Of a stretch of 64,000 bases of DNA, positions 6,519 through 16,619 are shown piece by piece; the stretch's first letter is position 1; each line of letters opens with the position of its first letter. The notes beneath the pieces are model-generated. The model had not been told where the DNA came from. It searched no databases and was given only the letters and a program-made list of their open reading frames with translations. The DNA lies in the NCBI RefSeq assembly GCF_056712565.1, contig NZ_CM160072.1. One strand, written 5' to 3'. The position numbers were made by a program, and so were the translations under genes.

Positions 6519-6544
6519 TCTGATTGTCAGGTAGGTTGGTTAAG

Positions 6545-6580
6545 TCCGTGATCTCGTCAGGGGTTACGGACTTTTTATTT
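6545..6580 (+). terminator. probable clpA rho-independent terminator
   Basis: GTCCGT...ACGGAC stem followed by TTTTTATTT, 27 bp after the clpA stop. Confidence 0.5.
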
Positions 6581-6730
6581 ATGGGGGGAGGAGGTTCAGA
6601 CCCTTTTTTTAATGATGATGCTAAGTTATTGATAATTAGTGCTGCGGGTAGGTAAGGATAAAAAAGGGTGGCAGCAGGAGATTGAGATGGTTTTGCTTTA
6701 TTAACAACGGGCTAAACGTGTAGTATTTGA

Positions 6731-7058
6731 GTTCACTGCCGTACAGGCAGCTTAGAAATGACGCCATATGCAGATCATTGAGGCGAAACCGTTCACTGCC
6801 GTACAGGCAGCTTAGAAAACGTTCGCACCGGTCAGGGTACTGCGCAGCGTGTTCACTGCCGTACAGGCAGCTTAGAAAGAAACCAGAGCGCCCGCATAAA
6901 ACAGGCACAAGTTCACTGCCGTACAGGCAGCTTAGAAATGATGGCGCAGCAGTCCTCCCTCCTGCCGCCAGTTCACTGCCGTACAGGCAGCTTAGAAACT
7001 GAACGTTGAAGAGTGCGACCGTCTCTCCTTGTTCACTGCCGTACAGGCAGTATTCACA
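6731..7058 (+). CRISPR. type I-F CRISPR array upstream of cas1: 6 repeats, 5 spacers of 32 bp
   Basis: 28-bp repeat GTTCACTGCCGTACAGGCAGCTTAGAAA at 6731, 6791, 6851, 6911, 6971; terminal degenerate copy at 7031 (GTTCACTGCCGTACAGGCAGTATTCACA); exact 60-bp periodicity. Confidence 0.97.
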
Positions 7059-7230
7059 CTACGATAGTGTTAGACGTTTGGTCGTGCAATGACACTCTCA
7101 ACTTCAAACCATTAGCGTTAGCACGCAATAACAATCGTAATAATTGCGATGGAAATCAATTTTCAGCACATAAATCAATGCTGTACTAAGCCCAATACCT
7201 TCAAATATAAAATAATCACAGGATGTGTTT

Positions 7231-8214
7231 ATGTCTTCGAATTACCTTACGCCTTCCGATCTCAAAACCATTCTCCACTCCAAACGCGCCAATATTTATT
7301 ATCTGGAAAAATGCCGGGTACAGGTGAATGGTGGGCGGGTGGAGTATGTTACCAGCGAAGGTAAAGAGTCGTACTACTGGAATATCCCCATTGCGAATAC
7401 CACGGCGTTGATGCTGGGAATGGGAACTTCCGTTACCCAGGCGGCGATGCGTGAATTTGCTCATGCCGGGGTGATGGTAGGCTTTTGTGGTACGGATGGC
7501 ACGCCGCTGTATTCAGCAAATGAAGTGGATGTTGATGTCTCCTGGCTCAGCCCACAAAGTGAATATCGCCCTACAGAGTATCTCCAGCAGTGGGTTTCTT
7601 TCTGGTTTGTTGAAGACAAACGACTTGCTGCCGCGAAACGTTTTCAGTTAATCCGCCTGACACATATCGATAAGCACTGGTCCAGCTCGAAAATGCTGCG
7701 TGAACACGCATTTCAACCTGATGTTAATGCGCTGCATACCCTCCTGAATCGTACTTGTGAAGAAATAGACGCGGCAGAAAACCATACGCAGCTTATGCTC
7801 GTTGAGGCCAAATTGACTAAAGCGTTATACAAAATGGTCAGTCAAACCGTGGGGTATGGCGATTTCACTCGCGCAAAACGGGGCGGTGGTATCGATATGG
7901 CCAACCGCTTCCTCGATCAAGGGAATTATCTGGCTTATGGACTGGCAGCAGTGGCGGCGTGGGTAACAGGTATCCCGCACGGTTTAGCTGTAATGCATGG
8001 TAAGACACGTCGCGGCGGGCTTGTTTTTGACCTTGCCGATCTGATTAAAGATGCTCTTGTTATGCCGCAAGCATTTATTGCCGCAATGGCGGGAGAAGAT
8101 GCTCAGGAGTTTCGTCAACGCTGTGTTAATATCTTTCAACAAGCGGATGCGCTGGATGTCATGATCACCTCTCTGCAGGAAACGGCCCAGGCACTGGCTA
8201 AGGCTGACCAATGA
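7231..8214 (+). CDS. cas1: type I-F Cas1 integrase (track ORF begins at GTG 7225)
   Basis: 329-aa ORF; strong similarity to Pseudomonas/Yersinia I-F Cas1 as I recall it (KTILHSKRAN, LAYGLAA, HGKTRRGGLVFD). Confidence 0.9.
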   Translation: MSSNYLTPSDLKTILHSKRANIYYLEKCRVQVNGGRVEYVTSEGKESYYWNIPIANTTALMLGMGTSVTQAAMREFAHAGVMVGFCGTDGTPLYSANEVDVDVSWLSPQSEYRPTEYLQQWVSFWFVEDKRLAAAKRFQLIRLTHIDKHWSSSKMLREHAFQPDVNALHTLLNRTCEEIDAAENHTQLMLVEAKLTKALYKMVSQTVGYGDFTRAKRGGGIDMANRFLDQGNYLAYGLAAVAAWVTGIPHGLAVMHGKTRRGGLVFDLADLIKDALVMPQAFIAAMAGEDAQEFRQRCVNIFQQADALDVMITSLQETAQALAKADQ

Positions 8215-15688: not shown

Positions 15689-15776
15689 TGGCGGTGAGGC
15701 GGGGATTCGAACCCCGGATACGTTGCCGTATACACACTTTCCAGGCGTGCTCCTTCAGCCACTCGGACACCTCACC
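15689..15776 (-). tRNA. serW: tRNA-Ser (serW-like, anticodon GGA)
   Basis: reverse complement reads GGTGAGGTGTCCGAGTGGCTGAAGGAGCACGCCTGGAAAGTGTGTATACGGCAACGTATCCGGGGTTCGAATCCCCGCCTCACCGCCA with long variable arm and 3' CCA. Confidence 0.93.
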
Positions 15777-16118
15777 AAATTGTTTTGCTGCCAGACCTCA
15801 TAGGTGGCAACGGGGCGCTACTATAGGGAGTTGGAGTGAAACGGTCAAGAAGAATTTATATAGATTGATTTGTTTGGTTACGCAATGAACACGCTGTTCG
15901 CGGGACGGAGATTATGACCGTATGTGTTCTGGTCAATTGTTTATCAAAAGCTATGCAGAAAATATGAGATTGAAGAAATACCAAACCGACCCTTTTTCTA
16001 GGTTGTAATGTAACTCATTGATTTTCTTATTGCTATTTTGAAGTCTGGAAAAAGGGTTTGAATCTGCGATTTTGTAAGTTTTAACAGTAAATCAATCGGA
16101 TAGTCTGCTATTATTCCA

Positions 16119-16507
16119 GTTCACTGCCGTACAGGCAGTTTAGAAATGGATTCCAAACCGCCCACCAACAAAAACAGGTGTTCACTGCCGTACAGGCAGC
16201 TTAGAAAGATACGATCGAATTTAGTCACTGAATACCCCCGTTCACTGCCGTACAGGCAGCTTAGAAAGGGTTGCGCAATGGGCTGGCCGACGAACGCGGG
16301 TTCACTGCCGTACAGGCAGCTTAGAAATGTGGCGCTGATGCGTCTGGGCGTCTTTGTACGTTCACTGCCGTACAGGCAGCTTAGAAAGCGCGCAGTGCCT
16401 GATAATCAATTTTGCTCATGTTCACTGCCGTACAGGCAGCTTAGAAAGAATATTTTGGAAAAATAGCTATCAATCCGGGGTTCACTGCCGTACAGGCAGT
16501 CTTCAAA
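16119..16507 (+). CRISPR. second type I-F CRISPR array: 7 repeats, 6 spacers (32-33 bp)
   Basis: repeats at 16119 (variant GTTCACTGCCGTACAGGCAGTTTAGAAA), 16180, 16240, 16300, 16360, 16420 and a degenerate terminal copy at 16480 (...GCAGTCTTCAAA); AT-rich leader-like sequence upstream. Confidence 0.97.
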
Positions 16508-16552
16508 CTCAACACTCCATCCTCTAATATTTATTCCCCATAACTCATAGAC

Positions 16553-16581
16553 GCAAAAAAGGCCGGTTAAACCGACCTTTT
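16553..16581 (-). terminator. probable infA rho-independent terminator (possibly bidirectional)
   Basis: GGCCGGTT/AACCGACC hairpin flanked by an A-run on the plus strand (U-run in the minus transcript). Confidence 0.5.
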
Positions 16582-16619
16582 ACTCATTCTTTCTCTTCGC
16601 CCATCAGGCGGTAAAACAA

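Follow-up and report, generated by a model that had tools for sequence, protein, structure and literature searches.

[quoted passage not shown] The initial annotation had implicitly treated the system as intact, which was not borne out, as csy2 and cas6f both contain nonsense stops, making two of the four effector-complex genes nonsense pseudogenes. The main value of the analysis is therefore a correction: a type I-F system that looks complete by gene order is pseudogenised at base resolution.

Organisation and subtype of the locus

The region at positions 6519-16619 consists of a leader and array, cas1f, cas2-3, csy1/cas8f, csy2/cas5f, csy3/cas7f, cas6f, serW and a second leader and array (Table 1). 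The gene order and boundaries of the initial annotation were right, with clpA ending at 6518 and infA starting at 16620 on the minus strand. Profile searches identified these flanking genes as the clpA and infA orthologues, and the flanks were collinear with K-12, in agreement with the initial annotation, through clpS-clpA, infA-aat-cydCD-trxB-lrp-ftsK and beyond. A whole-locus BLAST, which the annotation had proposed, showed the 10.1 kb to be 100% identical to E. coli chromosomes in which the locus is annotated as cas1f-cas3f-csy1-csy2-csy3-cas6f. The genome of Z0117EC0054 is near-identical, with 4 differing positions in 61.5 kb. The claim that only a subset of E. coli carries these genes held, since cas-F genes were found in 240 of 5426 complete genomes, and the locus has already been described (PMC3903273, PMC2886076).

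The assignment to subtype I-F was also correct. All six proteins matched NCBIfam and PADLOC I-F models and the repeats matched Rfam CRISPR-DR4. Using the curated NCBIfam cut-offs as the threshold, all six Cas proteins scored far above them against the type I-F equivalogs (Cas1f 550, Cas3f 1209, Csy1 415, Csy2 310, Csy3 441 and Csy4 183 bits), and the canonical effector order cas8f, cas5f, cas7f, cas6f was confirmed with Csy1-Csy4 each exceeding its cut-off. Cas1 belongs to the I-F clade (TIGR03637 cas1_YPEST, scoring 549.9 bits where the cut-off is 150) and is identical to the protein of the active LF82 system. Cas2 is fused to Cas3 in a single 1077-aa open reading frame that TIGR02562 matches end to end (1208.6 bits) and that the PADLOC model Cas23f also matches.

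Table 1. Features of the clpA-infA region, in window coordinates.
Feature	Position	Strand	Remarks
Leader of array 1, A/T-rich	6599..6730	+	aligns with leader 2 (homologous); also upstream of the K-12 orphan array
CRISPR array 1 (CRISPR4.1; 'CRISPR3' of Touchon & Rocha)	6731..7058	+	6 repeats, 5 spacers of 32 nt
cas1f	7231..8214	+	intact
cas2-3 (cas3f) fusion, 1077 aa	8211..11444	+	intact; profile match
Mini-array	11448..11557	-	psiR1, psiS, psiR2 and own predicted promoter
psiR2	11475-11448	-	intact hairpin, handle lost
psiS, 25-nt spacer	11500-11476	-	between psiR1 and psiR2
psiR1	11528-11501	-	degenerate hairpin, intact CTTAGAAA handle
Mini-array -10, TAACAT	11534-11529	-	consensus match
Mini-array -35, TTGCCA	11557-11552	-	consensus match
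Predicted target of mini-array RNA	11617..11631	-	CC PAM 11631-11630, then seed match
csy1/cas8f	11774..13081	+	intact; profile match
csy2/cas5f, pseudogene	13078..14001	+	CAG>TAG at 13291-13293, Gln72 to stop; 71/307 codons left
csy3/cas7f	14012..15013	+	intact; profile match
cas6f/csy4, pseudogene	15024..15578	+	CAG>TAG at 15390-15392, Gln123 to stop
serW, tRNA-Ser(GGA)	15689..15776	-	backbone; 15649-15857 95.7% identical to K-12
Leader of array 2	15988..16118	+	from the alignment of the two leaders
CRISPR array 2 (CRISPR4.2; 'CRISPR4')	16119..16507	+	7 repeats, 6 spacers of 32-33 nt

Nonsense mutations in csy2 and cas6f

The six cas genes failed an open-frame test, with an in-frame TAG at codon 72 of csy2 and at codon 123 of cas6f, the latter removing the C-terminal 62 of 184 residues. 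Both stops had been overlooked in the initial annotation; in near-identical Z0117EC0054, PGAP flags both genes as pseudogenes with an internal stop. Each stop is a C>T change of a CAG codon present in LF82, B7A and strain 3-72 and, for cas6f, also in MS8345. The csy2 stop allele was found in 124 of the 240 I-F-carrying complete E. coli genomes, and the cas6f stop allele in 11 genomes (of 5426 complete), all of them within the set of csy2-stop carriers. Since the same alleles recur in these independent assemblies, sequencing error was ruled out as their source.

The csy2-stop allele is that of the ST95-type B2 lineage (UTI89, S88, APEC O1, ATCC 11775) and has been published for UTI89 (PMC3784566), while no report of the cas6f Gln123 stop was found in the literature searched. 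Decay began with the csy2 stop; array 1 subsequently lost three spacers, and the cas6f stop arose last, in a small sub-clade. The nested cas6f stop serves as a lineage marker and illustrates, on a small scale, how decay can proceed step by step once a first change has inactivated the system. The genes cas1f, cas2-3, csy1 and csy3 are still intact in the csy2-null clade, which may reflect either a recent inactivation or some residual activity. The amber codons may be read through at a low level, or a suppressor tRNA may be encoded elsewhere in the genome, beyond the 64-kb window.

In an intact relative such as LF82, the arrays are transcribed from the two leaders and every repeat is cleaved by Cas6f behind the hairpin. 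The 60-nt crRNA is then bound by Cas8f, Cas5f, six copies of Cas7f and Cas6f, and the resulting complex recognises protospacers with a flanking CC, which Cas2-3 is recruited to degrade. New spacers are added by Cas1 with Cas2-3. In the window this machinery is disrupted at two essential points: Cas5f keeps 71 of its 307 residues and Cas6f 122 of its 184, and crRNA maturation, effector complex formation and interference are therefore all expected to be lost. With csy2 and cas6f pseudogenised, the strain should not be counted as CRISPR-immune. About half of the I-F-carrying complete genomes have the csy2 stop, which affects E. coli studies that relate the presence of I-F to the carriage of plasmids or resistance.

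CRISPR arrays and their targets

The repeat GTTCACTGCCGTACAGGCAGCTTAGAAA occurred 11 times at one mismatch or fewer, with 0 expected in shuffles; adding two degenerate terminal repeats gives 13 in all. The 28-bp I-F repeat of the initial annotation was upheld, as 12 of the 13 repeats reached the gathering score of Rfam CRISPR-DR4; the degenerate last repeat of array 1 (7031-7058) fell below it at 29.6 bits. The repeat fits I-F in its 28-bp length, 5-bp stem hairpin (predicted -8.6 kcal/mol) and 8-nt 3' handle, and the repeats are spaced at 60 nt. Tandem Repeats Finder missed array 1 wholly and found array 2 in part; the arrays had to be delimited by repeat and pattern searches.

Array 1 lacks an internal block of three spacers that MS8345 and PA45B have, and the best 40 locus matches showed two array layouts only, differing by one internal three-spacer block. 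All six spacers of array 2 are among the 22 of LF82, with no lineage-specific spacer at the leader end; likewise MS8345 and PA45B, whose csy2-null loci were the two read over their whole length, have no extra leader-end spacers.

Three spacers (A1-4, A1-5 and A2-4) matched IncF plasmids perfectly, hitting at least 5000 plasmid records of which at least 4038 are conjugative. The targets lie in the antirestriction gene region of F-like plasmids and in a replication initiator gene annotated as RepA or RepB-family. The targeted replication gene is present on the IncFIB-typed plasmid pPA45B, where the A2-4 protospacer is a perfect match with a CC PAM, and the PA45B chromosome has that same spacer together with the csy2 stop. 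A CC PAM also lies 5' of the A1-4 protospacer in pSFE059, and for A1-5 the two plasmids that were read, F and pSFE059, have CT in this position. No protospacer was present within the first 50 kb of pZ0117ECO054-1, a plasmid of near-identical Z0117EC0054. Among phages (E<=1) only A2-5 gave matches, which were weak (90-96% over 28-32 nt, lambdoid and Stx phages), and the other ten spacers gave none at this threshold. Self-targeting was considered and rejected, with none of the 11 spacers having a second match in the window at six or fewer mismatches.

Targeting of the strain's own plasmid has been published for UTI89 and pUTI89 (PMC3784566) and for UTI89, APEC O1 and S88 (PMC2886076). Loss of the system was most likely tolerated or favoured since the arrays target IncF plasmids carried by the lineage, a plasmid conflict previously proposed as the reason by Jiang et al. 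2013 (PMC3784566); for the window we infer it from related strains (PA45B, UTI89, APEC O1, S88) rather than from this exact strain.

A mini-array between cas2-3 and csy1

The 330-bp gap between cas2-3 and csy1 holds an unannotated minus-strand mini-array, which the initial annotation had overlooked. Two repeat-like units surround a spacer-like unit, with the handle upstream and the hairpin downstream, which is the layout of CreR RNAs. The putative promoter, known from its consensus match only (TTGCCA-17-TAACAT), ends 1 nt before psiR1, and its -10 element is kept in six of six variants. The mini-array was found in 238 of the 240 I-F E. coli genomes, and no listed record had an annotation under the match. 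When 100,044 species-representative genomes were scanned for the exact pattern, only E. coli and Escherichia sp. E1V33 gave matches; the pattern had a fixed seed, so that diverged versions would be missed.

The predicted target lies approximately 140 bp upstream of the csy1 ATG, where the seed match covers psiS positions 1-5, 7-11 and 13. This combination of seed and CC PAM is unique in the window (0 expected) and is conserved as an island amid otherwise diverged intergenic DNA, and in the divergent B7A seed position 5 covaries, from G:G to T:T. Consensus scans recognised no sigma-70-like promoter of the csy operon at the target, and it is position only that points to the target being the csy promoter. 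A toxin-like small ORF, the only one in the gap (ATG at 11698), was considered as a candidate and rejected, its start codon being lost in B7A-type variants.

The element looks like a CreR-type autoregulator, a class of regulatory mini-array described in 10.1101/2023.03.03.530964 and 10.1101/2023.03.10.532045. In intact relatives the mini-array RNA probably guides the effector complex to the partly matching CC-flanked site upstream of csy1, where the complex would repress the effector operon. Because Cas6f and Cas5f are needed, this circuit must be dead in the window too.

Relation to the K-12 locus

As the initial annotation had stated, K-12 has only a short cas-less array at this site, consisting of a leader, two repeats and one spacer. 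K-12 positions 1-382 of the comparison align with window positions 6378-6759 at 96% identity, and the sole spacer of the orphan array matches cas1f of the window at 7328-7359 on the minus strand (30/32, CC PAM). The annotation had also placed serW inside an inserted block, and here it was mistaken: judged by sequence conservation with K-12 (Table 1), serW is backbone and not cargo. Since serW and its flanks are conserved, the difference from K-12 comprises two separate replacements, one at 6760-15648 (8889 bp versus 62 bp in K-12) and the other at 15858-16555 (698 bp versus 108 bp).

The description of the region as inserted was likewise not supported, as the region shows no integrase, no flanking direct repeat and a weak composition shift, and K-12 has the same leader and first repeat. 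The comparison of GC content proposed in the initial annotation did reveal a shift (0.495 versus 0.52), but a weak one, too small to decide on composition as a sign of foreign origin. The literature is split on how the difference arose: gain was favoured by Touchon & Rocha 2010 (PMC2886076), who cite Diez-Villasenor et al. 2010 as having proposed loss.

Alternative explanations

The canonical gene order, the presence of all six families, the well-formed arrays and leaders, and the experimental activity of the 98.5-100% identical LF82 system (PMC3506596) would all agree with a working I-F immunity in which the arrays are processed and matching plasmids and phages are destroyed. Both TAG codons and the corresponding PGAP flags contradict this, as does PA45B, a csy2-null strain whose own plasmid has a perfect protospacer with a flanking CC, and intact immunity is accordingly scarcely credible. 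It is also very unlikely that the 10 kb represents a mobile genomic island integrated site-specifically at the tRNA-Ser gene serW. A tRNA gene does lie inside the region, GC and GC3 are slightly below the flanks, and divergence from B7A is higher in the cas genes (csy1 83.5% and cas2-3 93.8% identity versus approximately 97.7% in the core), although these mosaic identities are better explained by homologous recombination through the flanks ('module exchange', PMC3903273). Among the open reading frames of the region there is no integrase or other mobility gene, a blastn comparison with the K-12 serW region found no duplicated tRNA 3' end, and the locus thus lacks the integrase and direct repeats from the tRNA 3' end by which tRNA islands are recognised. 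Moreover, both flanks of serW are conserved with K-12, the cas segment stops approximately 40 bp past the tRNA 3' end, K-12 has this leader and first repeat at the corresponding position, and in all 240 genomes the cas block occurs exclusively at clpA-infA. The decaying ST95-type system remains the preferred reading.

For the mini-array, it is unlikely that the element is either a CreTA-type antitoxin repressing a small toxin gene before csy1 or a dead array remnant. P. aeruginosa I-F mini-arrays at this position have been reported to repress RNA toxins (10.1101/2024.10.29.618823), and the very conserved stretch of approximately 125 nt upstream of csy1 could encode an RNA. However, the whole intergenic region is identical in LF82, which is intact, and in the csy2/cas6f-null lineage, and a derepressed toxin would therefore have to be tolerated in 124 genomes. 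A remnant is difficult to reconcile with the conservation of promoter, handle, hairpin, seed, target and PAM while adjacent bases diverge, with one compensatory change alongside free variation at spacer positions 6 and 12, and with the presence of the element in nearly all I-F genomes. A fuller account, to which we give about an even chance, is that the mini-array is a working autoregulator of the effector operon in nearly all I-F E. coli and, given the identical intergenic region in LF82 and the null lineage, acts purely as a regulator (CreR) and guards no toxin; that mutation of cas5f and then of cas6f has made the ST95-type lineage a natural double knock-out for immunity and circuit alike; and that its stepwise decay reflects selection to keep targeted IncF virulence or resistance plasmids.

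Comparison with known systems

Published work already covers the locus, the csy2 stop, the targeting of the strains' own plasmids and the mini-array class; the second stop in cas6f and the E. coli mini-array are small additions. The mini-array provides an E. coli example, with covariation support, of a recently described class of CRISPR self-regulators. It resembles the CreR RNAs and regulatory mini-arrays of Shmakov et al. 2023 (10.1101/2023.03.03.530964) and Liu et al. 2023 (10.1101/2023.03.10.532045) in its place in a long cas3-cas8f gap, its transcription opposite to cas3, an upstream repeat that keeps the handle and a downstream repeat that keeps the hairpin, a short spacer, and a seed-only match (mismatches at 6 and 12) to a CC PAM target upstream of cas8f. 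It differs from those elements in that its repression of the target is a prediction, no promoter was recognised at its target, and the proteins it needs are null in this window.

The K-12 orphan array CRISPR4.1-2 occupies the same site and shares its leader and first repeat with the window (96% identity), but K-12 lacks the cas genes and the second array. The loci of UTI89, S88 and APEC O1 (PMC3784566, PMC2886076) share the lineage and the csy2 CAG>TAG change, and the spacers match those strains' own IncF plasmids; the window differs in its second stop, cas6f Gln123, found in 11 of 5426 complete genomes.

The I-F system of E. coli LF82 (Almendros et al. 2012, PMC3506596; 2014, PMC3903273), which is experimentally active (PMC3506596), has the same site, gene order, repeat and leaders as the window. 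Its Cas1f and Csy1 accessions are those of Z0117EC0054 and both genes are 100% DNA-identical to the window, the intergenic mini-array is identical, and LF82 also has the oldest spacer of array 1 of the window and every one of the six in array 2. LF82 differs in that csy2 and cas6f are both intact and the arrays are longer, with 9 and 22 spacers versus 5 and 6; the lower identity of its cas6f (95%) indicates a recombination patch. LF82 and the ST95 strains would form a convenient natural pair for testing the mini-array.

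The clpA-infA locus is of type I-F

ORF listing, repeat finding and tRNA scanning reproduced the gene map of the initial annotation, which had described a type I-F CRISPR-Cas island inserted into the clpA-serW-infA backbone (6519-16619). The 28-nt repeat is present in 11 copies at ≤1 mismatch, against 0 in 100 shuffles, and a degenerate repeat terminates both arrays at the leader-distal side, consistent with their transcription from the plus strand. All six Cas proteins far exceeded the NCBIfam type I-F equivalog cut-offs (the stop codons of csy2 and cas6f being masked prior to profile scoring) and also matched PADLOC I-F models, the repeats were assigned to Rfam CRISPR-DR4, and ClpA and IF-1 matched their own NCBIfam equivalogs. 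These matches confirm the proposed subtype and flanking genes, and the proposed restriction to a subset of E. coli also held, with cas-F genes carried by 240 of 5426 complete genomes. Earlier papers describe this locus, including both arrays and how seldom it occurs (Almendros et al. 2014, PMC3903273; Touchon & Rocha 2010, PMC2886076). The feature is already known, including its inactivation in the lineage of the window; what the present analysis adds is modest, namely a second hit in cas6f and an E. coli mini-array supported by covariation.

Features of the locus in window coordinates
Feature	Position	Strand	Description	Method
clpA	4242-6518			ORF listing
leader of array 1			130 nt, upstream of array 1	
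array 1	6731-7058		six repeats, five 32-nt spacers	repeat finding
cas1f	7231-8214			ORF listing
cas2-3	8211-11444			ORF listing
cas2-3/csy1 gap			330 bp	
psiR2	11475-11448	minus	mini-array repeat, full hairpin, handle lost	
psiS	11500-11476	minus	25-nt spacer-like segment, reads TAGAGGTATCTCCGGATACGGACTT	
psiR1	11528-11501	minus	degenerate mini-array repeat, CTTAGAAA handle kept, weaker hairpin	
promoter-like site	11557-11529	minus	TTGCCA-17-TAACAT	
predicted target	CC at 11631-11630	minus	CC followed by TAGAGATATCTTC	
csy1/cas8f	11774-13081			ORF listing
csy2/cas5f	13078-14001			ORF listing
csy3/cas7f	14012-15013			ORF listing
cas6f	15024-15578			ORF listing
serW	15689-15776	minus	tRNA-Ser(GGA)	tRNA scanning
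array 2	16119-16507		seven repeats, six spacers; own leader before it	
infA	16620-16838	minus		

Successive nonsense mutations in csy2 and cas6f

The system had been taken to be complete, but translation revealed in-frame TAG codons in csy2 (13291-13293, codon 72 of 307) and cas6f (15390-15392, codon 123 of 184). Comparison with LF82 (an E. coli strain with an intact I-F system), B7A, strain 3-72 and MS8345 identified both stops as C>T changes of CAG. Both genes are labelled 'internal stop' by PGAP in Z0117EC0054, a near-identical strain with 4 differences from the window over 61.5 kb of chromosome. The csy2 TAG has been reported in UTI89, with CAG at this site in LF82, ED1a and NRG 857C, and was read as CRISPR inactivation letting a targeted plasmid persist (Jiang et al. 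2013, PMC3784566); in LF82 the system is active and its expression constitutive (PMC3506596). No mention of the cas6f stop was found in the literature searched.

Alleles were counted using 55-mers centred on each mutation, with a 28-nt megablast seed such that the mutant allele alone can match. The csy2 stop was detected in 124 genomes and the cas6f stop in 11, ten of which are identical or nearly so to the window over the full 10.1 kb, indicating that the cas6f stop is nested within the csy2-null clade. MS8345 and PA45B combine the csy2 stop with an intact cas6f and three additional internal array-1 spacers. In S88, APEC O1 and ATCC 11775 array 1 is of the shorter form, and none of the three is among the cas6f-stop genomes. 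This distribution shows that the csy2 stop was followed by the three-spacer deletion and then by the cas6f stop.

A 71-residue Cas5f cannot hold the crRNA 5′ handle. Cas6f, which now ends at residue 122, has lost its C-terminal third; this part aligns over its whole length with solved Csy4 structures and, in the 2010 work of Haurwitz and colleagues on Csy4, reportedly contributes part of the active site. From these truncations we infer that crRNA processing, the Csy complex and interference would all be lost in the window strain.

Backbone and probable exchange of the cas genes

Alignment of the window to the 684-bp clpA-infA interval of K-12, the cas-less reference, identified three homologous blocks: the clpA end, leader and first repeat (6378-6759, 96% identical), serW and the DNA around it (15649-15857, 95.7%), and the infA gene together with its terminator (99.8% from 16556 onward). 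Between these blocks two stretches are replaced relative to K-12: 8889 bp of the window stand in place of 62 bp, and 698 bp in place of 108 bp. The conservation of the serW block indicates that serW belongs to the backbone and not, as first supposed, to the cargo. Insertion of an island is unproven: no integrase or att-like repeat was found among the locus ORFs and annotation, and the composition check proposed in the initial annotation gave a slight shift (GC 0.495 in the locus versus 0.52 in the flanks; GC3 0.44-0.52 versus 0.53-0.59).

The cas genes diverge between lineages more than the flanks do, and unevenly: between B7A and the window, identity is 83.5% for csy1, 93.8% for cas2-3 and ~97.7% for core genes. 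B7A csy1 (7697-9004 of its locus, L006) is far out of line with the other cas genes (91-96%), which indicates mosaic exchange within that operon. The same locus contains IS100 (istA/istB) at 11936-13737, between serW and array 2. The cas6f gene is 95% identical to that of LF82 (10947-11501 of L005) between neighbours at 99-100%, a difference that is apparently a short recombination patch at the operon end. Uneven divergence fits recombinational module exchange (PMC3903273). Published accounts are divided between gain of the cas genes by certain lineages and their loss from the majority (PMC2886076). The single K-12 spacer, a published 'anti-cas' spacer, matches cas1f (7328-7359, minus strand) at 30/32 positions with a CC PAM at 7361-7360; the mismatches are at spacer positions 4 and 6, hence one lies within the seed.

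Elsewhere in the window, ftsK (23618-27661) contains 39-93-bp periodic repeats rich in CAG/CCG codons (24833-26118; Tandem Repeats Finder), which encode the Pro/Gln-rich FtsK linker and are unconnected with the CRISPR locus. The ComEC-family gene ycaI (51544-53807) is a frameshifted pseudogene according to the Z0117EC0054 annotation. Additionally, ycaD directly adjoins pflA (37468-37565), whereas in K-12 ycaM, ycaN and ycaK presumably lie between them, so gene order in this flank may depart in part from that of K-12.

Array content and spacer targets

All six array-2 spacers are found among the 22 of LF82 in unchanged order, and the oldest array-1 spacer is also shared. The best 40 locus matches contain two array configurations only, differing by one internal three-spacer block, and the two csy2-null loci compared in full (MS8345 and PA45B) have the leader-end spacers of the window; judged from these arrays, the pattern would fit an absence of spacer gain since the system broke.

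Searched against plasmids, the 11 spacers matched at least 5000 records, mainly conjugative plasmids of E. coli, Klebsiella, Salmonella and Shigella; against phages, weak matches were obtained for spacer 5 of array 2 only, to lambdoid and Stx phages. A bias toward plasmid antirestriction, RepA and conjugation genes is published, as are spacers of UTI89, APEC O1 and S88 against their own plasmids (Touchon & Rocha 2010, PMC2886076). In F and numerous F-like plasmids, array-1 spacer 5 matches within the antirestriction gene, with CT instead of CC at the site in F; spacer 4 matches ~400 bp away from it in pSFE059, with a CC PAM. Array-2 spacer 4 matches the gene for a plasmid replication initiator (RepA or RepB-family by annotation), and does so perfectly, with CC directly before the protospacer, in pPA45B (typed IncFIA/IncFIB/IncFIC). 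The PA45B chromosome has the same arrays and the csy2 stop, placing spacer and target together in one cell.

A mini-array between cas2-3 and csy1

Searching with the repeat core picked up one further minus-strand copy (11456-11470), which lies within a mini-array (psiR1-psiS-psiR2). The predicted target matches psiS at positions 1-5, 7-11 and 13, and this PAM-plus-seed pattern occurs once in the window, with 0 expected by chance. In all six variants compared (window, LF82, B7A, 3-72, SCPM-O-B-8794 and Escherichia sp. E1V33) the matching positions pair; in B7A position 5 is altered on both sides, from G:G to T:T. Variation is unconstrained at positions 6 and 12, neither of which is read by type I complexes. 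The target is a conserved island amid diverged DNA. The mini-array is present in 238/240 I-F genomes, unannotated beneath the match in every record listed. Because the putative regulatory circuit depends on Cas6f and Cas5f, it cannot operate in the window.

Despite having no pairing with the target, the non-seed part of psiS (11476-11487, minus strand) and psiR2 are invariant in the six Escherichia variants, and psiS includes a short palindrome (GTATC-TCCG-GATAC). This region may have a further role, e.g. as a plus-strand cas2-3 terminator. The ~125 nt before the csy1 ATG (11640-11773) are highly conserved, even in B7A with its diverged csy1, and may represent a 5′ UTR or some regulatory element not yet recognised. 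Consensus scans recognised no csy promoter at the target.

We considered whether the gap holds a CreTA module, with the mini-array guarding a toxin, since P. aeruginosa mini-arrays in the equivalent location have lately been reported as repressors of RNA toxins (10.1101/2024.10.29.618823). However, LF82 shares an identical intergenic region with the csy2/cas6f-null lineage, where a derepressed toxin would need to be harmless, and the sole small ORF in the gap has lost its start codon in other variants. Regulatory mini-arrays (CreR) have been described at I-F1 and other type I loci (Shmakov et al. 2023, 10.1101/2023.03.03.530964; Liu et al. 2023, 10.1101/2023.03.10.532045), and the E. coli mini-array has in common with them that it runs antisense to cas3 and that its predicted target, located upstream of cas8, carries a CC PAM and is mismatched at positions 6 and 12.
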